Shown here piece after piece: positions 839-63,873 of a stretch of 64,000 bases of DNA. The position numbers were made by a program, and so were the translations under genes. The notes under the pieces were generated by a model. It did no database searches, was not told the origin of the DNA, and saw only the letters and a program-made list of their open reading frames with translations. Source of the stretch: an uncultured Solobacterium sp. (GTDB taxonomy: Bacteria > Bacillota_I > Bacilli_A > Erysipelotrichales > Erysipelotrichaceae); assembly GCA_938036765.1 (NCBI GenBank), contig CALHWI010000119.1, forward strand, positions 5,964 to 69,963. Reading direction: 5' to 3'. Numbering within the stretch: position 1 is the stretch's first letter; each line of letters opens with the position of its first letter.

Positions 839-914
839 TGGCGCCTGAAACAAGACTCGAACTTGTGACCTGCCGGTTAACAGCCGGATGCTCTACCAAC
901 TGAGCTATTCAGGC
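839..914 (-). tRNA. tRNA-Asn (GUU), second tandem copy
   Basis: Near-identical to copy 1 with one D-loop substitution. The 207-bp unit is duplicated, each copy with its own TTGCA(C/T)-17-TATTAT promoter on the minus strand. Confidence 0.85.
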
Positions 915-1896: not shown

Positions 1897-2920
1897 TATA
1901 GCTAACAACAAGCTTCATTGTGCTTTCTACACCATCATAGTGTGTTCTTTCCATTCCGTGGCTTGCATGAACACCTGGGCCAATCAAGGCTCCTTTAATG
2001 TCATTACCACCGCGTAATGCGGCACTGACATCTGAACCATATTGTGGGTAGATATCAACGGCATAATTAAGCTTGTTTTCTTTTGATAGTTCGACTAGAC
2101 GAGTAATCATTTCGTAGTCGTATGGTCCGCTTGAATCTTTTGCACAGATTGAAACATCTTGTTCAGTACAAGCTAAATCTGTACCAATACATCCCATATC
2201 AACGGCTAACAATTCTTCGACTTCTTCTGGTAAACAACTTGCTCCGTGTCCAACTTCTTCATATGTACTGAACATAATGACCAAGTCTCTTTGAGGTGTA
2301 ATGTTGTTGTCTTTTAAGTATTTTAGTACGCCCATTAAAGCTGTAGCTGAAATCTTATCGTCTAAGAATCTAGATTTAATAAATCCACTTTCTGTGATTT
2401 GTGTTTTTGTATCAATACAAATGAAGTCTCCGTTGCAGATACCTAATTTTTCAACATCTACTTTTGAGTGAACAACTTCGTCGATACGAACTTCCATTGT
2501 ATCTTCTTTTCTTTCTACTGTTGAAGCATCTGGATATACGTGAACGCTTGGTGAACAAGAAAGAATTGTTCCTGTATATACCTTTCCATCGCGAGTATAG
2601 ATCTTACAATATTCTCCGTCTAATGTTGGTAAGCAGGGCCCTCCAACTTTAGTAATGGCAAGTTTTCCATTGTCTTTAATGGAACGAACCATAAGTCCTA
2701 ATGTATCTAGGTGAGCACTCAATCCTAGTGTGTGTTCAGAATCTTTTCCGTCTACATAGATCAACAAGTTTCCTTTTTGGTTGCGTCCTGTTGTATAGCC
2801 TAATTTTTTGGCTTCTTCGTCCATGAAATCAATGGCTCTTTTTGTATAGCCTGTTGGTGAATCAATATTCAAAATTTGTTTGGCGATGTCACAGACATAT
2901 TCTTTATCAAATGGTTGCAT
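1883..2920 (-). CDS. M42 family aminopeptidase (FrvX/glutamyl aminopeptidase-like)
   Basis: 345 aa. HLDTLGLMVRSIKDNGKL...GG pattern typical of M42 peptidases. Confidence 0.75.
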   Translation of the reverse strand: MQPFDKEYVCDIAKQILNIDSPTGYTKRAIDFMDEEAKKLGYTTGRNQKGNLLIYVDGKDSEHTLGLSAHLDTLGLMVRSIKDNGKLAITKVGGPCLPTLDGEYCKIYTRDGKVYTGTILSCSPSVHVYPDASTVERKEDTMEVRIDEVVHSKVDVEKLGICNGDFICIDTKTQITESGFIKSRFLDDKISATALMGVLKYLKDNNITPQRDLVIMFSTYEEVGHGASCLPEEVEELLAVDMGCIGTDLACTEQDVSICAKDSSGPYDYEMITRLVELSKENKLNYAVDIYPQYGSDVSAALRGGNDIKGALIGPGVHASHGMERTHYDGVESTMKLVVSYITKY

Positions 2921-3030
2921 ATTTTAAAACTCCTCCTGTATGTATTATACGCTTTTATACAAATTCTAAACAATGTATTAAACTTTTTTTTGAATTTTGT
3001 GCTATTGTACAAGAAAAGGAGGCTAATTGT

Positions 3031-3501
3031 ATGGAATTAAATGTAAGAGAAGAAAAGTTAAAAGGTTTATTTAAACAGTTTCAAGTGGAACATAATGAGA
3101 ATTGTAAGACAGTATTTATTGATAATAATGATGAAAATTTAGAAAACTATTTAAATGAATCGAATATGGTATATTTACATATGGTGGATAAAGAAGTAAG
3201 ACATCTTGATTTGACTAAAGTAAATACAATATTTGTGAATAAAGAATATGCGAGTAAATTAGAAAATGGAATTCAGGATGAACAAAGAATTCTAGAACTA
3301 CTATTAAATAAATATCCCAATCTTAGAGTTGTATTAATTACAGATAAAAAGGGTGCTTATTATAAAGATAAGGACATGATGATTTACCAGAAAGAATTGG
3401 TCTCTAATTTTGATAAAGACTTATTCTTAGTTAAATATATGGCTTCAGAATTAAAGGGGAATTCAGAAATGACATCTCTATATCGAGGTGTAAATCAGTA
3501 A
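3031..3501 (+). CDS. Hypothetical protein (156 aa). True start probably ATG 3031 inside the longer ORF 2842..3501
   Basis: AAAAGGAGG SD upstream of ATG 3031. The upstream part of the ORF overlaps the divergent promoter region of the M42 gene. No recognisable family. Confidence 0.5.
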   Translation: MELNVREEKLKGLFKQFQVEHNENCKTVFIDNNDENLENYLNESNMVYLHMVDKEVRHLDLTKVNTIFVNKEYASKLENGIQDEQRILELLLNKYPNLRVVLITDKKGAYYKDKDMMIYQKELVSNFDKDLFLVKYMASELKGNSEMTSLYRGVNQ

Positions 3502-3707
3502 AGACTACTAGATATGTTAGAGTACCTAAGACAAAAACTTGAATTCGCGTACGTCTTTGGAATTAAAAGACTTTGGAGGTAGATTAATCCATGAAAACCA
3601 CCCTACATATCTAGTAGTCATTTCCATTATAAAGGTCCAATGTGAAAAGATTATTAAAAGTCAAAAGTTTTTCAAAATATTTTAAAATAGATGTGTAAAT
3701 CGGTAAG

Positions 3708-3736
3708 TTGATATTTATCATCTTTCTCGTTATAAT
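3708..3736 (+). promoter_or_regulatory. Consensus sigma-A promoter TTGATA-17-TATAAT
   Basis: TTGATA 3708-3713 and TATAAT 3731-3736 with exact 17-bp spacing. No protein-coding gene downstream on this strand. Confidence 0.6.
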
Positions 3737-3742
3737 ACAAGT

Positions 3743-3830
3743 ACAGAAAAGACTACTAGATATGGTGGTCACTCTGGATTAGGTTATAGCGCTAATCCCG
3801 TTACGAGTGGGTGGTTAGCGCTTTTTGTTT
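3743..3830 (+). ncRNA. Candidate orphan small RNA (~88 nt) with nested hairpins and an intrinsic terminator
   Basis: Predicted TSS about 7 nt after the -10. Transcript contains AAGACUACUAGAUAUG, nested stems CACUC/GAGUG and GGAUUAG/CUAAUCC, and terminator AGCGCUAA..UUAGCGCU followed by UUUUUGUUUUG (3788-3832). It ends about 8 nt from the stop of the convergent 339-aa gene. Confidence 0.45.
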
Positions 3831-3837
3831 TGCCGTT

Positions 3838-4857
3838 TCATTCATGATTGTATTGGTTTGCAGCATTTAAATAGGAGCTTTTAAATTCTGTTGCCAAAAC
3901 CTTTGGACTGATGATTTTTATGTCTTTTGCAAAAATATAGAAAAAGGTTTTTGCCTGGAAATAGGAACAGTCAAACTCTAATAGATATTCATTATTTTCT
4001 AATTGTGTTGTTTTTATTGGCATAGGTTTATTTAAATATCTAATTTTAAATAGTTCATATGCTTTTTGGTTAAATTGAATAATAATATGTTCTTCATTAT
4101 CTCCATATTTGAATTGAACACCATTTTTAATCATTTTATGAAAAGTTTTGAAATCTGTATCAGAAAATGTAATGTCAGATTCACTATTGAAGTGAACAGA
4201 CACTTCAGTAATATTCATTAATTTTCTTGTTGCGATTTCATAACAACCATTTTGATTGTTTCTAACTTTTCCAATCACGTAATTATATATTTTTTCTTTA
4301 TGTTCCATAATTAGGTAAGGCTTCATTTCAAAAATACTATTATCATTTGTTTTAATGGAAATTGATTTTTGTTGATCAATCGCATTTTGTATTTTTGAAT
4401 AGTTTTCTTTAAATAAGTAGATTTCTCTTTTATATATTGGTAATTGAAAAAAAGAATCAATCAACATTCTAATGTATATAGGAAAGCTCAAGTTGAGTGG
4501 AGTAATGAAATTAGATTGGATATTATCTAATAATACGGAGATATCTTTTTGAGGTTTAAATGATATAGTTCTATTTTTCTTTTCACCACTAGACTCTAGA
4601 GAAATATCATAAAACATCGTTTTTAATTTAATCTGTATAGTTTGATCATAAACGGTATCTACTACGGAAATATAATCCTTTATAGGATTTAGTTTTGTGC
4701 ATTCAAAATCAGAATGATAATTTCGAATCAATATATTAATAAATCGATTTATGTTTGGTTTGTTTTTATTGCATATTTGAAATCTGTTCGCATCTTCTAA
4801 AATAGAATTGTATTGAGAATTTGTGAAATATAATCGTATTGGGTCAATAAAATCCAT
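3838..4857 (-). CDS. Hypothetical protein, 339 aa, with WYL-like middle segment and WCX-like C-terminus (putative ligand-sensing regulator)
   Basis: Very AT-rich ORF. KPYLIMEHKEKIYNYVIGKV...CYEIATRKLMNITEV resembles a WYL core. C-terminal DIKIISPKVLATEFKSSYL resembles the xVLeP.eLr tail of WYL/WCX regulators. No clear HTH. Confidence 0.5.
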   Translation of the reverse strand: MDFIDPIRLYFTNSQYNSILEDANRFQICNKNKPNINRFINILIRNYHSDFECTKLNPIKDYISVVDTVYDQTIQIKLKTMFYDISLESSGEKKNRTISFKPQKDISVLLDNIQSNFITPLNLSFPIYIRMLIDSFFQLPIYKREIYLFKENYSKIQNAIDQQKSISIKTNDNSIFEMKPYLIMEHKEKIYNYVIGKVRNNQNGCYEIATRKLMNITEVSVHFNSESDITFSDTDFKTFHKMIKNGVQFKYGDNEEHIIIQFNQKAYELFKIRYLNKPMPIKTTQLENNEYLLEFDCSYFQAKTFFYIFAKDIKIISPKVLATEFKSSYLNAANQYNHE

Positions 4858-5058
4858 GATAATTTCCTCCTTTTTTCAAATAAATTATAACATATACTAA
4901 TTAAAGTAGTACATAAATATATAATATTATTCGTAATATAATGTTATAAGCAATAAATAAGTAGTACATAAAATGAAAAAAGTATCCATATTAAAACTAC
5001 TTTTATTCTGCTATTATTCATGTGTAAACAGGGATGACCTGTAGGAGGAAAAAATAGT

Positions 5059-6048
5059 ATGAATAAAGATCAAAAAAATTATGAATCAAATGTATCTACA
5101 GGATTGAATTCTGTACAAACAATTTATGAAGGAAGTGTGAATGCACGTGTCGTTGAAAGAGCGGGAAATCTAGCTTCTTCACAAAGTAAGGGTATTGCGC
5201 ATGAAATTATGTATGCAGATAAATTAAATGTTACACGTCCAGAACTTGGTGTGACAAAACTATCTACAAAAACCAATGCAGTGCGTGATGATTTAGTGAG
5301 TGTAAAGGATGGTGTAGTCAAGTATCGTGCACAACTTAAGGATACTGTATCTTCTTCTGGAGTGAACAAAACGGTAACTCAGGGAATGAATGGAAAGTAT
5401 CAGGGAACGAATTTTATGGGGACAAAAGAAACCACAGAACTTTACAATGCAGCAACTAAAAATACGGCTGCTCAGAAAACGAGTTCAACAGGAATCTCAT
5501 CAAAGGATACTTCTAGAATTACAGAGTCTTTTTCAGGAAAGATGACAAGCTTAGAAAATATCGCACACAATTCAACTCGAGCAGGATCATTCGGCGCAGT
5601 TGCAAACGTTGCGGTTGGAGCCGTTGAAGATATTGTGAATAGTGAATCTGGCGATGAAATGTTAGCTCATGCAGCAGCAAATGGTGCTAGAGGTTTTGCC
5701 TCAGGCTATGTAGGGTCTGCAGCAGCTACTGTAGCAACTTCAGCAACAGCAGCTGGAATCGCATCTGTACCAGCATTAGCTGCAGCACCATTAGTAGCGG
5801 TAGCAGCACCAGTAGCCGCAGGTATTGTGGCTGCAACTGTTGCAGGAAAGGTTGTTATGGATGCCACAGATGGAGAAGTCAAAGAAGTATTAGAAGATAT
5901 TGGTCGAGGTGTTGGAGACTTTATTTCTGATGCAGCTGACGAAGTCGCTTATAGGGTTGTCGATAGTATTGGTGAAGGACTAGATAGAGTTGGCGACAAG
6001 GTTGATGACTTTATCGACAGTGTCAGTCTATTCTTCAATTTATTCTAG
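5059..6048 (+). CDS. Hypothetical protein, 329 aa: polar S/T/N/K-rich region, ~95-aa Gly/Ala/Val hydrophobic domain, acidic DxIGxG-repeat tail
   Basis: AGGAGG SD 9 nt upstream. Uninterrupted GAVANVAVGAV...AAAPLVAVAAPVAAGIVAATVAGKVV segment suggests glycine-zipper membrane insertion. No signal peptide and no assignable family. Confidence 0.55.
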   Translation: MNKDQKNYESNVSTGLNSVQTIYEGSVNARVVERAGNLASSQSKGIAHEIMYADKLNVTRPELGVTKLSTKTNAVRDDLVSVKDGVVKYRAQLKDTVSSSGVNKTVTQGMNGKYQGTNFMGTKETTELYNAATKNTAAQKTSSTGISSKDTSRITESFSGKMTSLENIAHNSTRAGSFGAVANVAVGAVEDIVNSESGDEMLAHAAANGARGFASGYVGSAAATVATSATAAGIASVPALAAAPLVAVAAPVAAGIVAATVAGKVVMDATDGEVKEVLEDIGRGVGDFISDAADEVAYRVVDSIGEGLDRVGDKVDDFIDSVSLFFNLF

Positions 6049-6199
6049 GGAAAGGAAGGTGAATATCATGGATAATCAAACAGTTGGAGTTGAACATTAG
6101 AGTAATATAAAGCTAATGTTTTAAAATATAACTCAAATTAATGAAAAACGCTTTATATAAAGTGTATGCTACGAGCATACATTTCAATTTTTATATATA

Positions 6200-6242
6200 A
6201 ATTTATAGGAAACGGCTTACATAAGTGATATAATGCATGTAA
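6200..6242 (+). promoter_or_regulatory. cas9 promoter (extended -10 TGATATAAT)
   Basis: TGnTATAAT at 6226-6234, followed by SD GGAGGG 6257-6262. Confidence 0.5.
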
Positions 6243-6269
6243 CATAATTACTTTATGGAGGGTATTGAA

Positions 6270-9200
6270 ATGGATAATAAGTATGTATTAGGCCTGGATA
6301 TTGGAATTACATCAATAGGTTGGTCAATAATTGATGAAGTTAGGGGAAAACTATTGGATATGGGAGTTCATATGTTTGAACAGGCAATCCCTGCACAAGA
6401 AGTTAGATTGAATCGTTCGGCAAGAAGAACATTGAGAAGAAGAAATTGGAGAAAGAAACAATTAAAGAATGCGTTTGTAGAATTTGGATTGATTTCAAAA
6501 GAGGAATTAAATCAAAGAGACTATTTGAGTTATACTGCAAATTCAGATACATTTTCTCGTCCTGAAGAGGATACGGTTTACCATTTAAGATTGAAAGCGT
6601 TGAAGGAACAAATATCTTTAAGAGAGCTTTTGTTGTGTTTGTATAATATTTGCGGTACTCGTGGACATTTCTTAATGGAGAATATTAATTTTACCTCCAG
6701 TGAACCAATTACTTTTGATTTCTTTGTTGAGCAATTTTATGAGTTTACACATGAATATGTGAATTTTGAAGAAGATACAAAAGAATTTGAGCAGACAATA
6801 CTAAAACCTATTTTTGAAAAGGGAAAAGTAAAATCTAATGAATTAAAGTCTTTGTTGAAGGATGAATATACAGTGGAATCTGAGGATAATGATGCATTAT
6901 TAGAAATATTGAAATTGATCTGTGGATTTAAATGTGATTTAAAGAAAATTAGTGAGTCTGTTGTACTCGTTCAAGAGGATAAAACTAAAGAATCTGTAAA
7001 ATTAGATGAATTATTGAAGATGGATAGCTTAAATGAATTTTTGAACAATGCAGTAGAACTTCATGATGTAATTGCGGTTTCTCAGATTTTAAAGGATCAT
7101 AATTATATTTGTGAAGTGGCTGTAGAGAAATTAAATGAAGTTCTAAATGTTCAAAAATTAGAACATTCAGATCCAGATAAATATAAAGAAGAAAAGAACA
7201 ATATTCAGAAAAAAATGAGTAAGGCAGTTGGAGAGCGTTTGCGTGTTGTAAAAAATATGGAGAATAAGTATCCGAATGGCTTGTATGTAAAAGAAGCTAG
7301 TGAAATTTTGCATAAACAACAAGAATTTTATCCTAATTTGATTACGGATAATTTCATTGAAGCATGTATTTCTACAATTAAAGCACGTATTCCTTACTAT
7401 ATTGGACCATTGTCTTCACAAGCTAAGAATAGTTGGATTGATCGTAAAGATGGTACATTTAAGTATGGATATGACTATTGTAAGGATGCTTTAGTAAATG
7501 AAGAAGAGAGTATTCAAAATTGGAAGTTGAATATGATTTCACATTGTACGTATTTACCCGAAGAATATGCACTTCCAAAAGGATCATTTATTGCAGAGAC
7601 ATTTAGCTTATTAAATGAATTGAATATTCTTACCGCAATTGATAAGAATGAAAATCGATATTATTTAACTCGTGAAGATAAATTAAAAGTATTTGATGAA
7701 TTATTCTTGAAGCGTACAGATTATGTTTCGCATAAAGAAATTGCAGAATTATTAAACTTAAAATCTTTTGGTCCTAAAGACTCTCGTAAAGAAGGTAAGT
7801 TTAAAAATAGATATACTTTGTACCAAAATATAATTTCTGTTTTCCCTCAATTTGAATTGCATTCTATTCTTGATTTATTTAATGAATATGAGAAAGAAAA
7901 AGTAGATAAGATTGAAGATATTATTTTGAATTTAAACTTATTTGATGAAGAACAATCAAAAATTAATTATTTCACTAAGAAGTTGAATTTAGATGAAAAA
8001 GATGCGAAGAAGTTAGCAAGATGTAAATCAAATGGATTTTATGCTTTCTCTAAACGATTTATTATGGAAACAAAAATGAATGTTGATGGAGAAACATTAC
8101 TTGAGGAAATGTTAAGGGACAATTCAGAAAATCAAAAGAATGAACAGATGACTTTGATTACTGAAGCAACGGACTTGGATGGAAATAGAATTAATTTTGA
8201 GTCTAACAAGTATATGACTTTACTAAAGAACACTAACGAGTTGTCTATCGATTTATTGATACAAGATGGTAAACCATTTATTCCAATTGCTAGACCAGTT
8301 ATTAGAGCTTTGAATGAATGTTTTAAACTATATGAAGAAGTTATCAGAACATATGGAGTTCCTGATCGTGTTGTTATTGAAACAGCAAGAGACTTAAAAG
8401 ATAGTTCTCAAGATGGAGATGTACCAGCTAAACATTTTGATCAGATGAAAAAGTTGTATGATTACTTAAATAATCAAATGAAAGAGCAGAAGAAAAAGGC
8501 CAAACTTTCAAAACAATATATGGAAGATTGGGATGTTATTGAGCCTTATTTAGAAAAGAATAAGCGTAAGGTTGAACTATATATACGTCAAAATGGCCGT
8601 GATATGGTAACAGGAGATACAATTGATATTCAACATTTAGAAGATTATGAAATGGATCATATTTTGCCTCGTGGATTTGGAGATAATTCCATGGATAACT
8701 TGATGTTGATTAAAAAAGAAATCAATGGAAAAAAAGCAGACAGACTTCCATTAGAATATATTGAATCGGAAACAGTGGAGAATGAAAACGGAAAACGTAT
8801 CTTATCTAGTGATTTCAAACGTAGATGTTACGAATTGAATGAAATGAAGTTGATTTCAGATAAGAAATTAAAACGTTTATTATTAGCATCCACAGATGAA
8901 GCAATGGGATTTATTAATCGTAATCTAGTAGATACTCGTTATATTATTCGTGAACTAATGGCTATTTTAAGAGCTTATAACACAGTTAATAATTATGATA
9001 CTCATATTGTTTCATTGCGTTCTTCATTTACAACGGTGTATAGAAATGCATTTAATATGAAGAAAAATCGTGATACTGGTGATCAACACCATGCTCATGA
9101 TGCTTCAATTGTTGCCATTGCAGATATGGTTTTATCGACATATTTTCCAAATTATGATGAACGTGGAAATAATAAGTATTATCAAGAATTCTTGAAGAGA

Positions 9201-10322
9201 ATGATGGAATCACAAGGACCAGATAGTGATAAATCGGAAAATCAAAAATTGTATGGATTCATAAAATATGCATATTTTAAGAGATTTGGTAATTATCCAA
9301 ATGATAATGATTCATTAATTTCTCAAATAAGAGCTACAGTACCTTTATATTCTATAAAAGCAGAGAAAAACTATAAAGGTGCATTCTTTGATGCGACTAT
9401 TTATCCGCAAATGGATAAGAAGAAAAACATACCTAGAGAAAAAGGTGTATTAGGTCTTTTAGGTGTAAACAATGATAAACGTATCTATAGCTCAATAAAT
9501 TGTGTTGCAGTAGATTTCTATAAATATACAGATAAGAAGGGAAAGAAGGTCCATGTTGGAATTCATATTCCAAAAGTCATCGTAAATAACAATGGTGAAA
9601 TCAATAAAGAGCAATATGTTAAGTTAATTAGAGATTACTATAAAGTACCTGAATTATTAGATGAAAATGGGAATGTGAAGGAATGTTATTTCCGTATGCG
9701 TGTATTTAAAAATGATTTGATTTATGATACAAATAACTACACAATTCAAAAGTTTAATATAGGTTCTATAGTGAATAAAAAATTAGAAATGAAGCATTTG
9801 TATGTATTTAGTTATGATGAAATCTATAAACAAGTTAATTTCTATAAGAAAGAGTTAGCTGCGCAATTTGATTTTAAAATGGCAAAAATCAATCCGGAAG
9901 GAAAGAAAAAATTCTCGGATTACAAAATTACTGAAATCATTAGTTATTGTGTAGATAACTTAATGGATATTCATGATTTGAATCGTTATAAGGGAACAAT
10001 TGAGAAACTATTAAAAGAAAAGACAGGCTATCAGGAATTTTTAGAAACCATGGCTTATTTAGATTTGATTGTGAATCGAAATTGTACTCCACCTACCATT
10101 GTAGGACAATACATGCCTGTCGCAAGCACAATTGATGATAAATCGGATGTTGAAAATAAAATACAATACATCAAAATCAAATCAAGCATTCTAGGTATTC
10201 GTTATATTTATAATGAAAATGGTAAGTTATTAATATCAGGTCCTAGAAAGGCGCCTGGAAAGTATTCTAAGATTAAAAAGGAAAAGTTCTCTTGGAAAAT
10301 TTGTAGCGACGTGCTACAATGA
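6270..10322 (+). CDS. cas9: Cas9, type II-A CRISPR endonuclease (about 1350 aa)
   Basis: N-terminal RuvC-I MDNKYVLGLDIGITSIGWSII. HNH motif DMDHILPRGFGDNSMDNLMLI. RuvC-III DQHHAHDA. Followed by cas1-cas2-csn2 and the array. Start taken as ATG 6270 (SD spacing 7) rather than 6255. Confidence 0.95.
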   Translation: MDNKYVLGLDIGITSIGWSIIDEVRGKLLDMGVHMFEQAIPAQEVRLNRSARRTLRRRNWRKKQLKNAFVEFGLISKEELNQRDYLSYTANSDTFSRPEEDTVYHLRLKALKEQISLRELLLCLYNICGTRGHFLMENINFTSSEPITFDFFVEQFYEFTHEYVNFEEDTKEFEQTILKPIFEKGKVKSNELKSLLKDEYTVESEDNDALLEILKLICGFKCDLKKISESVVLVQEDKTKESVKLDELLKMDSLNEFLNNAVELHDVIAVSQILKDHNYICEVAVEKLNEVLNVQKLEHSDPDKYKEEKNNIQKKMSKAVGERLRVVKNMENKYPNGLYVKEASEILHKQQEFYPNLITDNFIEACISTIKARIPYYIGPLSSQAKNSWIDRKDGTFKYGYDYCKDALVNEEESIQNWKLNMISHCTYLPEEYALPKGSFIAETFSLLNELNILTAIDKNENRYYLTREDKLKVFDELFLKRTDYVSHKEIAELLNLKSFGPKDSRKEGKFKNRYTLYQNIISVFPQFELHSILDLFNEYEKEKVDKIEDIILNLNLFDEEQSKINYFTKKLNLDEKDAKKLARCKSNGFYAFSKRFIMETKMNVDGETLLEEMLRDNSENQKNEQMTLITEATDLDGNRINFESNKYMTLLKNTNELSIDLLIQDGKPFIPIARPVIRALNECFKLYEEVIRTYGVPDRVVIETARDLKDSSQDGDVPAKHFDQMKKLYDYLNNQMKEQKKKAKLSKQYMEDWDVIEPYLEKNKRKVELYIRQNGRDMVTGDTIDIQHLEDYEMDHILPRGFGDNSMDNLMLIKKEINGKKADRLPLEYIESETVENENGKRILSSDFKRRCYELNEMKLISDKKLKRLLLASTDEAMGFINRNLVDTRYIIRELMAILRAYNTVNNYDTHIVSLRSSFTTVYRNAFNMKKNRDTGDQHHAHDASIVAIADMVLSTYFPNYDERGNNKYYQEFLKRMMESQGPDSDKSENQKLYGFIKYAYFKRFGNYPNDNDSLISQIRATVPLYSIKAEKNYKGAFFDATIYPQMDKKKNIPREKGVLGLLGVNNDKRIYSSINCVAVDFYKYTDKKGKKVHVGIHIPKVIVNNNGEINKEQYVKLIRDYYKVPELLDENGNVKECYFRMRVFKNDLIYDTNNYTIQKFNIGSIVNKKLEMKHLYVFSYDEIYKQVNFYKKELAAQFDFKMAKINPEGKKKFSDYKITEIISYCVDNLMDIHDLNRYKGTIEKLLKEKTGYQEFLETMAYLDLIVNRNCTPPTIVGQYMPVASTIDDKSDVENKIQYIKIKSSILGIRYIYNENGKLLISGPRKAPGKYSKIKKEKFSWKICSDVLQ
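10292..10320 (+). promoter_or_regulatory. tracrRNA promoter inside the cas9 3' end (TTGGAA-17-TACAAT)
   Basis: TTGGAA 10292-10297 and TACAAT 10315-10320, 17-bp spacing. The -10 overlaps the cas9 stop codon. Confidence 0.5.
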
Positions 10323-10325
10323 GTG

Positions 10326-10416
10326 TGTCAAATAATACAAATGAATTTAGTCTGGAAGAATAAGATTTAAATTCGAAAACTATTAGAGATAGCTAATTGT
10401 GGCTATCTCATTTTTT
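10326..10416 (+). ncRNA. tracrRNA: tracrRNA (anti-repeat plus terminator hairpin)
   Basis: 10328-10360 TCAAATAATACAAATGAATTTAGTCTGGAAGAA is an imperfect reverse complement of the CRISPR repeat, about 26 of 33 nt with the typical internal bulge. It ends with GAGATAGC..GCTATCTC hairpin and T6 (10386-10416). Same orientation as the cas operon, between cas9 and cas1. Confidence 0.8.
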
Positions 10417-10433
10417 ATTATAGTTTTATTAAT

Positions 10434-11336
10434 ATGGGCTGGAAAACAGTAGTAATTGGAACTGAGTGTACAGTGTCATTAACATTAAATCGAATGAAAA
10501 TTACAATAGGAAATGAATATCAGAATATACCATTATGCGATTTGGATACAGTGATTTTTTCACACAATCGAATTACTATGACAATTCCAATGTTGTCAAA
10601 ATTGGTAGAGAATAATATTAATGTAATAATTTGTGATTCAAAGAATGATCCAATTGGTATTTTTCAACCATTCAACAATCATTCTTTGGTATTTAAGCAA
10701 TTGAATAAACAGATTAATTGGAAAATAACTCGGAAAAAGAAATTATGGAAATTTATAATAGAACAAAAAATACAATCTGAAATAGATGTTTTGGATTTGA
10801 TTTATGAGGATTGTGATGAATTAGAAACTTTAATTGGCTATAAGAATTCAGTTTATAATGATGATCAAACAAATCGTGAAGCAGTGAGTGCAAAGTGTTA
10901 TTTTGGAAAGATGTTTGGGACAAAGTTTTATAGAGATGATAAGAAGGATGTTAGAAATTTTGCACTAAATTATGGATATAAGATTTTAGCTAGTTATATT
11001 TCAAAATGTATAACAGCTAGAGGATTATTAACTCAACTAGGAATTCATCATATTGGTGAATCGAATGCGTTTAATTTAACATACGATTTTATAGAACCAT
11101 TAAGAGTGATAGTAGATGTATGGGTTGAAGAAAATATTAAAGATAGTTTCAATGTGGCTCAAAAACAAGAGTTGATTGGTCTATTAGAAACGAAGGTTTA
11201 TATAGATAAGAAATGGATGCGTCTAAAAGATGCAATTGAAGATTTAATTGATTCTTATATTGGTTTCTTGAATGAAAAAACAGATGATATTTTGAAAATT
11301 GATTTTTCAAAAGGAATTCGTTATGGAGGGGAGTAG
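10434..11336 (+). CDS. cas1: Cas1 integrase (type II)
   Basis: MGWKTVVIGTECTVSL... N-terminus characteristic of type II Cas1. 300 aa. Correct position in the operon. Confidence 0.9.
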   Translation: MGWKTVVIGTECTVSLTLNRMKITIGNEYQNIPLCDLDTVIFSHNRITMTIPMLSKLVENNINVIICDSKNDPIGIFQPFNNHSLVFKQLNKQINWKITRKKKLWKFIIEQKIQSEIDVLDLIYEDCDELETLIGYKNSVYNDDQTNREAVSAKCYFGKMFGTKFYRDDKKDVRNFALNYGYKILASYISKCITARGLLTQLGIHHIGESNAFNLTYDFIEPLRVIVDVWVEENIKDSFNVAQKQELIGLLETKVYIDKKWMRLKDAIEDLIDSYIGFLNEKTDDILKIDFSKGIRYGGE

Positions 11337-11679
11337 TAGATTTGTGAGATTAGTATTATTCTTTGATTTACCTCAAGAAACGAAAACAGATCAAAGACAT
11401 TACAGACAATTTGTAAAATATTTAAAAACTGAAGGATTTATACGAATCCAATATTCAGTTTATGCAAAATTATGTATAAATAATGACTCAGCTAAAACGA
11501 TTCAAAAAAGACTTAAAAACAATGTTCCTGATAATGGGGATATACGATATTTAATAATAACTGAGAGGCAATATCAAAACATTGTGAATATGAATAGTAA
11601 TTATACTTTACAAGAAAACATTACAACAACAGATCGTACTTTAATTATAGGAGGACTAAATAGTGAAAATAATACATGA
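11323..11679 (+). CDS. cas2: Cas2
   Basis: RFVRLVLFFDLP...IQYSVYAK Cas2 pattern. Likely start ATG 11323 overlapping the cas1 stop (longer ORF from 11299). Confidence 0.85.
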   Translation: MEGSSRFVRLVLFFDLPQETKTDQRHYRQFVKYLKTEGFIRIQYSVYAKLCINNDSAKTIQKRLKNNVPDNGDIRYLIITERQYQNIVNMNSNYTLQENITTTDRTLIIGGLNSENNT

Positions 11680-12538
11680 GAAATCTGTCTACTTGATTCC
11701 GGAAGATAATAATATAGTAGTACTAGCAGGTGCTAAACAAAAAGATATAATAGATTGTTTTATAAATCAATTCGTTAAAAAGAAAAGAAATTATTGTAAA
11801 GTATTAGATTCTGAAAATCAGTCAATTAAACCAACTGAGCTTAATTTTATTTATTACCCATATGGTAGTGATATTAATTCTAATTTTGAATTTGGAACAA
11901 AATCTATATTCAATATTGAAACAACTAATCTTATTCAAGAAAATGAAAATGATTTTAAATCACTTGAATTTATTAGAGAAGGACTCAGAAACTTAACAAC
12001 TGATCATGGCATGTATAAACTGAGAGAGATATTAACACGAAATATAGAATGTAATATTAATTTTGAAATGTCGAACTTTGATGTTTCTAAGTTTTTATCG
12101 ATGTTAGACATAAGCCTAGATGATGTTTCAAATGGTGAACGATATGTTATGGTTTATAATCTTTTGTTGTTCATTAATAGAAATCAATTTAACGTTATAT
12201 ACATTGATTTTCCAATTACACAAACTGTATTAAAATGGTTAAAATCATTTGATCAAGATAATATTTTGTTTCTTTTAAATAATGATTATATAGTTTGTGA
12301 TTCTATTAAAGAACTAGAAAAATTATCGATGCTGATTGTTTCTGATAAAGATTATATTGAAAAATATGAATATGATTTAAACCAATTTAATAACATTTCC
12401 TATATACAAAACCCTTATACTATGCTTCATAAGCAACAACAAACAGAAAAAAACATTCGATTAATGGAACAATTTGAAGATAAAAATACAACTTTTTATC
12501 TAACTTTTAATGATACTTATACTCAAGATATACTGTAA
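11663..12538 (+). CDS. csn2: Csn2 (type II-A signature gene), 291 aa, GTG start
   Basis: Position between cas2 and the array defines subtype II-A. AGGAGG SD 9 nt upstream of the GTG. Weak direct sequence recognition. Confidence 0.7.
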   Translation: MKIIHEKSVYLIPEDNNIVVLAGAKQKDIIDCFINQFVKKKRNYCKVLDSENQSIKPTELNFIYYPYGSDINSNFEFGTKSIFNIETTNLIQENENDFKSLEFIREGLRNLTTDHGMYKLREILTRNIECNINFEMSNFDVSKFLSMLDISLDDVSNGERYVMVYNLLLFINRNQFNVIYIDFPITQTVLKWLKSFDQDNILFLLNNDYIVCDSIKELEKLSMLIVSDKDYIEKYEYDLNQFNNISYIQNPYTMLHKQQQTEKNIRLMEQFEDKNTTFYLTFNDTYTQDIL

Positions 12539-12571
12539 ATAAAGCATAAATATGCTATAATAAGGCTGACA
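12539..12571 (+). promoter_or_regulatory. CRISPR leader (33 bp) with extended -10 TGCTATAAT promoter
   Basis: TGnTATAAT at 12553-12561. Predicted pre-crRNA TSS a few nt before repeat 1. Confidence 0.5.
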
Positions 12572-14511
12572 GTTCTTGAGGACTAAGTTTATTTGTATTA
12601 TTTGAACTGTTAAATGCAGGAAAGTATTCAAAACGTAGTTCTTGAGGACTAAGTTTATTTGTATTATTTGAACCTATCCCACATGTCCTGACAGAGAATA
12701 AGCAGTTCTTGAGGACTAAGTTTATTTGTATTATTTGAACACCCACTTCAAAGTGTCATATGTTTTATTGTTCTTGAGGACTAAGTTTATTTGTATTATT
12801 TGAACTCTTTTACGCTGTGTAACTCGTCCATAATAGTTCTTGAGGACTAAGTTTATTTGTATTATTTGAACTTGGAATTGCAAGAGCATTTAACATGCCT
12901 AGTTCTTGAGGACTAAGTTTATTTGTATTATTTGAACCCAAAAGACTTATAATAAATCATATCAAATGTTCTTGAGGACTAAGTTTATTTGTATTATTTG
13001 AACCTGATTTCCATATGCTTGTTCACGGGCATGTTCTTGAGGACTAAGTTTATTTGTATTATTTGAACTTGATATTGGACTGTTTCATATCCGAAAATGT
13101 TCTTGAGGACTAAGTTTATTTGTATTATTTGAACACATGACACGTATTCCACTGGCACGAACGCGTTCTTGAGGACTAAGTTTATTTGTATTATTTGAAC
13201 TTCCATACAGCATTAGCACTAGGAGTAGCTAGTTCTTGAGGACTAAGTTTATTTGTATTATTTGAACCTGTGATAAAAAATAAACAAGGAGGATATAGTT
13301 CTTGAGGACTAAGTTTATTTGTATTATTTGAACCTGCACAGGTAAATTATTCTGTGCAAAATAGTTCTTGAGGACTAAGTTTATTTGTATTATTTGAACC
13401 GAATCGAATGCATAATCAGATTGTCCGTCGTTCTTGAGGACTAAGTTTATTTGTATTATTTGAACTATTAAGTAATCGTACATGCTTCGGATACGTTCTT
13501 GAGGACTAAGTTTATTTGTATTATTTGAACAGGCAGATCAAGAACAGCAGCCGAACTGGGTTCTTGAGGACTAAGTTTATTTGTATTATTTGAACCTATG
13601 GACCAAAAGGGCCTTGAACAGGCCTGTTCTTGAGGACTAAGTTTATTTGTATTATTTGAACAACAACAGGCAGACAGTTTGAAGTCGAGGAGTTCTTGAG
13701 GACTAAGTTTATTTGTATTATTTGAACAAAAGAAAGACACAAAAAAAGAAAAGTTGTGTTCTTGAGGACTAAGTTTATTTGTATTATTTGAACAAAAAAG
13801 AAAAACATAGGCTAAATGTACATGTTCTTGAGGACTAAGTTTATTTGTATTATTTGAACAGAAAAAAAGAAAGATCTACAAATTACGAGTTCTTGAGGAC
13901 TAAGTTTATTTGTATTATTTGAACTTGGAAGAAAAAAGAGACGAGTTAGAAGAGTTCTTGAGGACTAAGTTTATTTGTATTATTTGAACTGTAATATATT
14001 TATGTACAAATCAACACGGTTCTTGAGGACTAAGTTTATTTGTATTATTTGAACAAATTACAGAATATCAGTAGAAAGTTGTGAGTTCTTGAGGACTAAG
14101 TTTATTTGTATTATTTGAACAAATGATAAAAAAGGCGAAGAAGCATACTGTTCTTGAGGACTAAGGTTATTTGTATTATTTGAACTTTTGAGCGTTTCGC
14201 ACGTCTTAAAATATGTTCTTGAGGACTAAGTTTATTTGTATTATTTGAACTGTAATATATTTATGTACAAATCAACACGGTTCTTGAGGACTAAGTTTAT
14301 TTGTATTATTTGAACAAATTACAGAATATCAGTAGAAAGTTGTGAGTTCTTGAGGACTAAGTTTATTTGTATTATTTGAACAAATGATAAAAAAGGCGAA
14401 GAAGCATACTGTTCTTGAGGACTAAGGTTATTTGTATTATTTGAACAATTATCAACAATGTGCCAGTCATCACATGTTCTTGAGGACTAAGTTTATTTGT
14501 ATTATTTGAAT
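12572..14511 (+). CRISPR. CRISPR array: 30 repeats of 36 bp (GTTCTTGAGGACTAAGTTTATTTGTATTATTTGAAC) and 29 spacers of 29-31 bp
   Basis: Period about 66 bp. Repeat starts at 12572, 12638, 12705 ... 14476. Terminal repeat degenerate (ends GAAT). Repeats at 14150 and 14411 carry a T-to-G variant (CTAAGGTTAT). Transcribed on the + strand according to the tracr anti-repeat. Confidence 0.97.
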
Positions 14512-48773: not shown

Positions 48774-49947
48774 TCATATCTTGATTCGTTATGGCGAATT
48801 GAGTTTAAAAGGAAAAAACCGTAACAACTTTATTAAGGCGCTTTATGATAATGTTCGTAAGGCTTTAAAAGCATTCCCAACATTAGAATTTGAAAAACAA
48901 CATGATCGTATGTATATTTACCTTCATGATGAAGATTCAAAACAGGTTAGTGACATTTTAGCAAAAGTCTTTGGGATTTCATCTTTCTCATTGGCTATTA
49001 AAGTGGAACCAGATTTAGATCAAATCATTGATGCTTGTTATGAATCTTTAGATTTAACAACGCCAAAAACATTTAAGGTGGCTGCTCGTCGTAGTGATAA
49101 ATTATTCCCTTATATTTCAGATGAAATCAATCGTAAGGTTGCTACTAAAATTTTAAAGAACAGTGACTGGAAAGTAGATGTGCATAATCCGGATGTTAAA
49201 ATTGTTGTAGAAGTTCATCAAGATGCAGCTTACATTATGACAGATCGTATTCAAGGAGCTGGTGGATATCCAGTCGGTGTTGGTGGAAAGGCCATGGTTT
49301 TATTGAGTGGTGGAATTGATTCTCCAGTTGCCTGCTACTTAATGATGAAGCGTGGTGTACACATTGAATGCATTCACTATGCTTCTCCTCCATATACTTC
49401 ACAAAATGCACAAGAAAAAGTTATGGAACTGGCAAGACTTGTATCTGGCTATCAAGGTGATGTTTTAGTTCATGTTGTTCCATTTACAGATCTTCAATTA
49501 GCTATCTATCAAAATGCAGATGAAAGCTATGCGATCACATTGATGCGTCGTATGATGATGCGTATTGCAACAGGTCTTGCTAAAAAAAGACATGCACAAG
49601 CTATCGCAACAGGTGAATCGATTGGACAGGTTGCTAGTCAAACTCTAGAGAGTATGCTTACAATCAATGATGTCACAAATATGCCAATCATTCGTCCAGT
49701 GGTTTGTATGGATAAAGTTGAAATTATTGATCTATCTAAAAAGATTGGAACTTATGAAACAAGTATTCTTCCTTATGAAGATTGTTGTACAATTTTTACA
49801 CCTAAAAATCCAGTCACAAAACCTCGTGTTGATAAATGCGAAAAATATGAGGCAAAATGGGATTTTGACAAGATGGTACAAGATTGTATAGATAATACAG
49901 AAGATATTTGGGTACATCCAGTTAAGGTTGAAGAGGATTTGTTCTAA
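48757..49947 (+). CDS. thiI: tRNA 4-thiouridine synthase ThiI
   Basis: THUMP N-terminus plus PP-loop LLSGGIDSPVA. Confidence 0.9.
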   Translation: MAYRYNHILIRYGELSLKGKNRNNFIKALYDNVRKALKAFPTLEFEKQHDRMYIYLHDEDSKQVSDILAKVFGISSFSLAIKVEPDLDQIIDACYESLDLTTPKTFKVAARRSDKLFPYISDEINRKVATKILKNSDWKVDVHNPDVKIVVEVHQDAAYIMTDRIQGAGGYPVGVGGKAMVLLSGGIDSPVACYLMMKRGVHIECIHYASPPYTSQNAQEKVMELARLVSGYQGDVLVHVVPFTDLQLAIYQNADESYAITLMRRMMMRIATGLAKKRHAQAIATGESIGQVASQTLESMLTINDVTNMPIIRPVVCMDKVEIIDLSKKIGTYETSILPYEDCCTIFTPKNPVTKPRVDKCEKYEAKWDFDKMVQDCIDNTEDIWVHPVKVEEDLF

Positions 49948-49998
49948 GAGAAGTGAAAATTAAGCACTTCTCTTTTTCTTTTATGTTATAATCTTTTT

Positions 49999-63590: not shown

Positions 63591-63873
63591 AATTGTGTAT
63601 TGTCTAGTAGGATAAAAGCGTATAAAAAGGCAATGAAGAGGGCGAGTACCTTTTAGAAATACTTTAGAGAGCTTTTGGTTGGTGAAAAAAAGCGTAGGAC
63701 TAATTGGGAATAAAGACTTGGAGCTATTTGTATTTCCTGCATTAAAGGAAGCGCTGTTTATAGACAGTGACTAAGGCTGGACAAAGTGATTTGTTTGGTA
63801 AATTAGGGTGGTAACACGAGCACTTCGTCCCTTTGTGGCAAGTGCCTTTTTTTATGGATAAAAGAAAAAGGAG
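63591..63873 (+). promoter_or_regulatory. T-box leader (promoter TTGACA-17-TAGGAT, specifier region with AAA, T-box sequence, terminator) upstream of lysS
   Basis: AATTAGGGTGGTAACACGAG matches the T-box consensus AATTAGGGTGGNACCGCG. Terminator GCACTT..AAGTGC followed by T7 at 63829-63868. GGTGAAAAAAAG in stem I offers a Lys AAA specifier. Confidence 0.7.

Follow-up and report, generated by a model that had tools for sequence, protein, structure and literature searches.

A small RNA gene beside a type II-A CRISPR-Cas locus as the probable orphan antitoxin of a candidate type I toxin-antitoxin module of gut Holdemanella

The 64-kb stretch of DNA analysed here (the window) contains a type II-A CRISPR-Cas locus with cas9 (6255-10322, assigned with Pfam) and three other ORFs, and its 36-nt repeats form an array at 12571-14510. 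Local alignment of the repeat and its complement with the whole window located the sole anti-repeat within 10301-10390. It belongs to a tracrRNA gene at about 10325-10410 (plus strand), in which the hairpin GAGATAGCTAATTGTGGCTATCTC and a T-run come after the anti-repeat GTGTCAAATAATACAAATGAATTTAGTCTGGAAGAA, itself placed between the cas9 stop codon (10322) and the cas1 start codon (10434). To the left of cas9 lie a 329-aa ORF and, divergent from it, a WYL-like gene, followed further left by a small RNA gene, which is the subject of this study, and by a 156-aa ORF (ORF3) upstream of the small RNA, to which no family could be assigned. Rfam detected, in addition, a T-box leader at 63624-63835 (plus strand, 107 bits) and tRNA genes at 635-707 and 842-914 (minus strand), which are ordinary features.

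The small RNA gene is free-standing, as a preliminary description of this DNA had proposed, with a promoter and a terminator of its own. The sigma-A-type promoter TTGATA-17-TATAAT (3708-3736, plus strand) is the top promoter-like site within 2500-6500; it had been called a perfect consensus, but it matches at 11 of 12 positions and is thus near-consensus. Its conservation in relatives had been named as a check on the gene, and the promoter is intact in 107 of the 111 assessable homologous copies elsewhere. The predicted transcript of about 88 nt (3743-3831, plus strand), a putative type I antitoxin, begins with a 5' hairpin of eight pairs (GACUACUA-GAUA-UGGUGGUC, 3751-3770), which bears a recurring motif, and ends with an intrinsic terminator (3788-3831), the stem of which pairs AGCGCUAAUCCC (3788-3799) with GGUGGUUAGCGCU (3810-3822) and is followed by the U-tract U5GU4 (3823-3831). 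A 90-nt transcript has a minimum free energy (MFE) of -30.7 kcal/mol (z = -3.7), and none of 200 shuffled sequences was as stable. The covariance model of the small RNA gave 107 bits at 3743-3831, the sole genuine copy in the window; a match at 49888-49984, which is the terminator of a 396-aa gene, was rejected as chance.

There is no ORF on the plus strand downstream of the small RNA that could be its cognate coding gene, in agreement with the preliminary description, and the next gene, the WYL-like gene, is convergent. Its ORF ends at 3838, 6 nt past the U-tract, so that the proximity to the stop codon described earlier is correct and the small RNA overlaps the 3' side of this gene. Two small ORFs that overlap the small RNA or lie close to it (3539-3685, plus strand; 3611-3772, minus strand) were discarded; they have no Pfam match and are not conserved as ORFs. 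The Rfam covariance models gave no match to the small RNA at the gathering score in the window region, and relaxation to E <= 10 yielded chance-level matches only. The antitoxin and small RNA families of Rfam (RatA, SR4-type, Fst antitoxin and others) matched neither the window region nor an intact unit of the relatives described below.

Related loci were retrieved from Holdemanella genomes and human-gut metagenomes; the 98 loci contain 115 copies of the small RNA (nhmmer). A 20-nt core of the RNA matches three genomes, namely Holdemanella porci, H. hominis and Eubacterium sp. AF22-8LB, and a 21-nt core matches 87 human-gut metagenome stretches; the window is accordingly assigned to a Holdemanella-like member of the Erysipelotrichaceae. 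In the three genomes (loci L009-L011) the stop codon of ORF3 directly adjoins the small RNA promoter, and a unit of about 364 bp, often tandemly duplicated, is situated ahead of the region upstream of cas9. An intact convergent ORF of 33 codons follows 87 of the 115 RNA copies, and all intact 33-codon ORFs in the architecture table are adjacent to the RNA. The last codons and the stop codon of this ORF sit inside the terminator stem and the U-tract of the small RNA. Elsewhere the ORF has been lost by insertion of a TnpB-family IS, by frameshift or by cassette replacement, and the RNA gene persists; preferential loss of the toxin with retention of the RNA is the order of decay expected of a toxin-antitoxin (TA) pair. 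Neither the peptide nor the RNA core matched viral contigs, the peptide had no plasmid match (tblastn), and the whole DNA unit had no match in phage records (blastn).

The small RNA allele of the window is identical to that of 14 homologous copies on other contigs, save for the last base of the 90 nt compared, and copies of this variant elsewhere are mostly followed by an intact toxin ORF. Among 21 distinct sequences, 97.6% of the pairs of the hairpin-plus-terminator fold are kept. No compensatory base-pair changes were found in this set, because the sequences are too similar, and the three one-sided changes are all pair-preserving. The 5' hairpin is paired in 100% of the cells of the alignment, with two of these one-sided changes (U-G to C-G and C-G to U-G); the homologues, however, form a single narrow clade and were retrieved by an exact core of 20-21 nt that fixes the 5' half, and its conservation is therefore partly by construction and weak evidence for the fold.

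The 33-codon ORF has the consensus MQIQVNIDITIVLIAILQLIRVIIIIHEENKKR and is preceded by GGAGGA 7 nt upstream of its ATG. Residues 5-26 of the peptide are hydrophobic (GRAVY 2.5) and are followed by the charged tail HEENKKR; type I toxins are usually described as small hydrophobic peptides with a charged tail (PMC5961336). Variation among the 42 distinct DNA versions of the ORF comprises 12 synonymous variant types over 20.7 sites and 17 non-synonymous ones over 78.3 sites (ratio 0.37, binomial p = 0.01), with the proviso that the 29 variant types are phylogenetically non-independent. Apart from rare changes of I to T and V to A, the replacements exchange one of I, V, L, M and F for another. 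No toxin family of Pfam or NCBIfam matched the peptide at E <= 10, and no Fst-family toxin was among the results of the Pfam scan.

The promoter that would serve this ORF combines a good -10 box (TATAAT or TAGAAT) with a poor -35 box and is thus weaker than the antitoxin promoter with its 11 of 12 matches. The predicted start of the toxin mRNA, (A)UUGCUACUAGAUAUGGCAGGUGGUUUCCUCUGGAU, is found 7-8 nt downstream of the conserved TATAAT/TAGAAT. It has the same sense as GACUACUAGAUAUGGUGGUCACUCUGGAU of the small RNA, the motif being inverted in the DNA, and the same-sense similarity of the two 5' ends extends over about 35 nt with an indel; in every unit the motif is either invariant or compatible with wobble pairing. 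The 3' region of the toxin transcript would be antisense through the small RNA gene, and the two ends of the toxin mRNA are therefore complementary. A 261-nt model of this mRNA folds with -73.5 kcal/mol (z = -4.2), and in both the MFE and the centroid structure nucleotides 4-35 form a terminal helix with the 3' end, while the Shine-Dalgarno (SD) sequence is paired locally with CUUUC. The isolated 5'/3' duplex has -38 kcal/mol, compared with -15.4 +/- 3.5 kcal/mol for shuffled sequences, and is without covariation support. The duplex of the small RNA with nucleotides 1-110 of the toxin mRNA has -30 kcal/mol and is weaker than the shuffle mean of -39 kcal/mol. The antisense image of the small RNA terminator is devoid of a U-tract, and two A-C mismatches occur in the second hairpin. 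Among the features of type I systems, a hydrophobic putative toxin of fewer than 60 aa, in which a transmembrane helix precedes a charged C-terminus, is thus encoded in the relatives and is absent from the window, an antisense RNA with its own promoter follows from the sequence geometry, and cis elements that would silence the toxin mRNA (SD/anti-SD and 5'-3' pairing) are present as fold predictions.

The window itself contains no copy of the toxin in its 64 kb (tblastn). The sequence switches right after the U-tract, from the toxin-type sequence of the relatives (CTTCATGAATAATAATG...) to the WYL-like cassette, and the WYL-like gene (339-aa ORF, 3838-4857, minus strand), the first gene of the inserted cassette, occupies the site of the toxin ORF. 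The same junction, with an intact small RNA promoter, is common to about ten other contigs. Without a toxin ORF in the window the TA function is therefore inoperable here, unless a toxin copy exists outside the 64 kb.

A second unit, upstream of the small RNA, has decayed. The segment 3497-3624 (minus strand) is an inverted repeat with homology to the intact units of L011 and constitutes a remnant of a toxin gene, in which the -10 box of the promoter, the 5' UTR motif and the 3' end with its arm are retained, while the start codon ATG has mutated to ACG, no Shine-Dalgarno sequence is left, and the bulk of the ORF and the first small RNA copy have been deleted. The -10 box (TATAAT, 3626-3631, minus strand) is of the toxin type, precedes the motif copy at 3621 by 7 nt and is accompanied by a poor -35 box. 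The arms of the inverted repeat (3500-3517 and 3605-3622), extended by 6 extra complementary bases, would close the remnant RNA (-37.4 kcal/mol, z = -4.8). The remnant allele is common, and elsewhere the RNA copy that follows it usually has an intact toxin. A 3'-end segment of ORF3 is present as a direct repeat on the plus strand, at 3482-3501, the boundary of the tandem-duplication unit, and at 3687-3706, directly upstream of the small RNA promoter.

The preliminary description had noted that a 16-nt motif of the small RNA, AAGACTACTAGATATG, recurs twice more upstream. The copies exist, at 3501 (plus strand) and at 3606-3621, in addition to the one at 3749 (plus strand); however, that at 3606-3621 is on the minus strand, i.e. 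inverted, with one mismatch, which had not been mentioned. Four matches with at most three mismatches were found in comparison to 0.87 expected, and 0 of 100 shuffles reached four. As judged from the sequence, the recurring motif represents the predicted 5' end of the toxin mRNA and is explained by the putative architecture of that mRNA. The decayed upstream unit therefore accounts for all three motif copies as well as for the duplicated end of ORF3 (3482-3501 and 3687-3706).

The DNA directly 3' of the small RNA or of the TA unit (3832-14510 in the window; also L001, L058, L064, L040 and L021) is a hotspot of defence islands, which contain, depending on the contig, type II-A CRISPR-Cas, type III-A Csm or type I restriction-modification genes (N6_Mtase and HsdR). 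L021 represents a true empty site, with its RNA terminator directly adjoining the base that corresponds to window position 14511, the first one past the CRISPR array. Loci in which the region upstream of cas9 appeared to be followed by the region past the array were also considered as empty sites and were rejected, as about 7 kb of other DNA separates the two features. A segment of about 150 bp upstream of cas9 (6100-6254, with a hairpin at 6160-6184) is kept after TA units even when these are followed by III-A genes or by other DNA. It is thus retained without cas9 and therefore belongs to the flank of the TA unit and not to cas9.

Taken together, the anatomy of the gene and the degree to which it is conserved, the coding signature of the ORF and the fold predictions make it probable, with good though not full confidence, that the RNA at 3743-3831 is the orphan antisense antitoxin of an undescribed type I TA module of gut Holdemanella. 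In an intact unit, the strong promoter would drive the synthesis of the RNA of about 88 nt and keep the antitoxin in excess, while the weaker convergent promoter would yield an mRNA that encodes the 33-residue membrane peptide MQIQVNIDITIVLIAILQLIRVIIIIHEENKKR and that, with its stop codon and 3' UTR, would be antisense to the small RNA gene over its full length. The first 35 nt or so of the toxin mRNA share the 5' motif of the small RNA and would thereby pair with the mRNA's own 3' end in a 5'-3' lock, with the SD sequence paired locally. The antitoxin and the toxin 3' region could form a perfect duplex of up to about 88 bp that includes the last codons of the ORF. This duplex would displace the 5' arm of the lock and mark the mRNA for double-strand-specific and other RNases, and the presumed toxicity of the peptide would thus be neutralised by RNase-linked decay of its mRNA, by analogy with TxpA/RatA, BsrG/SR4 and the RCd RNAs of Clostridioides difficile. 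As far as can be read from the sequence, the module is organised like a 3'-overlapping type I TA system, yet it is not a member of any described toxin or antitoxin family by sequence. The earlier statement that the RNA belongs to no known family thus stands with regard to Rfam, while the kind of RNA can be matched, its anatomy being that of a putative type I antitoxin.

In the window, the cassette with the WYL-like and 329-aa genes has taken the place of the downstream toxin gene, the upstream unit has decayed to a non-coding hairpin, and the RNA would therefore be an orphan antitoxin in this genome. It is probably still expressed, and it is unavoidably antisense to any 3' UTR of the WYL-like mRNA. 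It may be a relic, it may neutralise toxin copies elsewhere in the genome, or its target may be the 3' end of the WYL-like mRNA. The assignment as an orphan antitoxin guards against misannotation as a CRISPR RNA or as a novel riboregulator beside cas9. The 33-aa toxin and the antitoxin of about 88 nt would constitute a candidate new type I TA family in Erysipelotrichaceae; the literature library that was searched contains no paper that combines "type I toxin" with this family of bacteria. The same-sense motif in the antitoxin and in the toxin 5' UTR suggests that the two might compete at the 5'-3' lock.

In TxpA/RatA and BsrG/SR4 of Bacillus subtilis, the toxin/antitoxin duplex triggers degradation of the toxin mRNA. 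As in the module described here, the antisense RNA is 3'-sided and overlaps the toxin 3' UTR and the end of the ORF; the differences are that no Rfam or Pfam match to these systems exists here and that the toxin is shorter. To our knowledge, an antitoxin motif with the same sense as the toxin 5' UTR has not been described for the two Bacillus systems. Fst/RNAII (par of Enterococcus faecalis pAD1) and SprA1/SprA1as likewise have a 33-aa toxin in which a single hydrophobic helix is joined to a charged tail, convergent genes that meet at a shared terminator region, and a repeat near both 5' ends. The par repeats, however, make the two RNAs complementary outside their overlap, whereas the repeat here is inverted in the DNA and thus gives the same sequence in both RNAs. 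In contrast to Fst/RNAII, no complementarity exists between the small RNA and the toxin 5' region, and the overlap takes in the end of the ORF; assignment to the Fst/par family was rejected on account of the same-sense motif and the lack of a match to the Fst profile. The predicted pairing of the mRNA ends, which closes the molecule, and the sequestration of the Shine-Dalgarno sequence resemble hok/Sok and AapA1/IsoA1. These systems are from Gram-negative bacteria and their antitoxins target the 5' part of the mRNA, while the antitoxin here would be antisense to the 3' arm of the lock.

The anatomy accords with the description of Gram-positive type I TA families, in which the antisense RNA is 3'-sided, SD/anti-SD and long-distance 5'-3' pairing occur, and the genes are often in tandem (PMC8594479). 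The closest parallels in setting are modules of C. difficile, i.e. CD2517.1/RCd8, CD2907.1/RCd9 and CD0956.2/RCd10 (PMC5961336), which share with the putative module convergent transcripts that overlap at their 3' ends, a toxin that is a small membrane protein charged at its C-terminus, and an antitoxin in the form of a structured antisense RNA, and are likewise located beside CRISPR-Cas in defence islands of a gut Firmicute. Type I TA modules adjoin the CRISPR arrays of C. difficile, and their toxin/antitoxin duplexes are RNase III substrates (PMC5961336). The C. difficile antitoxins are longer (134-350 nt, with overlaps of 131-283 nt; PMC5961336) than the antitoxin of about 88 nt that accompanies the 33-aa peptide here, and the arrays in question are inside prophages, whereas here the neighbours are cas genes and the edge of an island, and the toxin is absent from the window. 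No sequence relationship of the 33-aa module to the C. difficile modules was detected. Gut Holdemanella would be a second lineage, after C. difficile, with type I TA at the edge of CRISPR-Cas or defence islands.

It is unlikely, but worth considering, that the RNA acts in cis as an antisense regulator of the WYL-like gene, a role that it may have gained by co-option or have had here all along, with the duplex controlling the 3' end and the stability of the mRNA. The WYL-like stop codon is 6 nt from the U-tract, and the only minus-strand hairpins past this stop codon are the antisense images of the small RNA hairpins, the first of which has no U-tract. The WYL-like mRNA is thus without a terminator of its own and must therefore run into the region antisense to the small RNA. 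The retention of the junction and of an intact promoter in the other contigs mentioned above points in the same direction; however, these contigs are near-identical, and junction retention therefore says little about selection. Furthermore, the junction resembles a recombination scar directly after the U-tract, the convergent partner is the 33-aa hydrophobic ORF in most loci, and WYL homologues with 40% identity (L004-L008) occur without the small RNA, as determined with the covariance model. The last two observations also speak against the specific tie to the WYL-like gene or to CRISPR that had been suggested in the preliminary description.

A further reading, to which we assign a low probability, extends the role of the TA unit to the defence islands. 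The unit would be the fixed left border of a hotspot that exchanges type II-A CRISPR, type III-A CRISPR and type I restriction-modification systems, and after toxin loss the RNA would have been rewired as a 3'-UTR antisense regulator of a WYL1-like CRISPR accessory gene, or, alternatively, the intact TA would be an addiction module that guards the island. If the hotspot and rewiring were real, an RNA derived from a TA system would tune CRISPR-associated regulation.

Very little speaks for a trans-acting or ligand-sensing riboregulator with mutually exclusive folds and without any link to a toxin. The nested helices CACUC/GAGUG and GGAUUAG/CUAAUCC, on which the earlier proposal of a riboregulator was based, do exist in the window copy and compete there with the terminator stem, and the RNA is more structured than shuffled sequences. 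Nevertheless, the helices are not kept in the paralogous type 2 copies: the alternative pairs form in 78% of the cells (71% for helix 2), and roughly half of the sequences have lost four of the seven helix 2 pairs, while the terminator fold is kept at 97.6%. In addition, there is no co-directional downstream gene and no Rfam family, and the convergent ORF fully accounts for the anatomy. The proposal of a riboregulator with alternative folds is thus not supported, and neither is a riboswitch or attenuator, the alternative helices being unconserved and the next gene convergent.

It is similarly improbable that the motif acts at the level of the DNA, as an operator of both promoters or as a recombination (att-like) site at the island edge, with the "RNA" being incidental. 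The motif does closely follow the -10 box at both promoters, oriented the same way with respect to transcription, and II-A CRISPR, III-A CRISPR or type I restriction-modification islands, or nothing, are joined right after the terminator. However, the similarity spans about 35 nt with an indel, as would be expected of paired RNA arms, the arms of the remnant have been lengthened by 6 complementary bases, the island junctions are found after the U-tract and not at the motif, and no recombinase is encoded nearby. Finally, a guide-type RNA related to CRISPR (tracrRNA, tracr-L-like RNA or scaRNA) has next to no probability and was rejected as tracrRNA, because the small RNA, although it bears a terminator like a type II-A tracrRNA and lies 2.4 kb upstream of cas9, has no anti-repeat and no complementarity to the CRISPR repeat, the genuine anti-repeat and terminator are between cas9 and cas1, and the RNA is also present in loci with a III-A system, with a restriction-modification system or without CRISPR.

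Two neighbouring elements deserve mention in their own right. In L001 (7473-9032, plus strand), and also in L045 and L017, the 33-codon toxin ORF is split by a gene for a 519-aa TnpB-family protein, which matches NCBIfam guided_TnpB with 1.3e-12, below the curated cut-off, and has a weak Cas12f1-like TNB match. Two small RNA copies flank this gene in L001, and the duplication was considered as a cassette or att structure, a view that was rejected in favour of the insertion of a TnpB-family IS into the toxin ORF, with a normal tandem unit on either side.

The divergent pair of the WYL-like gene (3838-4857, minus strand) and the gene of the 329-aa protein (5059-6048, plus strand) forms a mobile cassette that is found beside II-A as well as III-A loci. 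The WYL-like protein has a weak WYL signature (PADLOC 7e-9; WYL1, PDB 6OAW, E = 0.0019) and few homologues, of which a 95%-identical one is encoded in L001 beside a type III-A Csm locus, not cas9. No family was detected for the 329-aa protein, and the 40%-identical WYL homologues of L004-L008 are likewise paired with a gene of about 327 aa. The pair may be an uncharacterised CRISPR accessory or defence module. Between the two divergent genes there are direct repeats at 4904-4941 and 4959-4996, which begin with AAGTAGTACATAAA and may be the operator for the WYL-like regulator.
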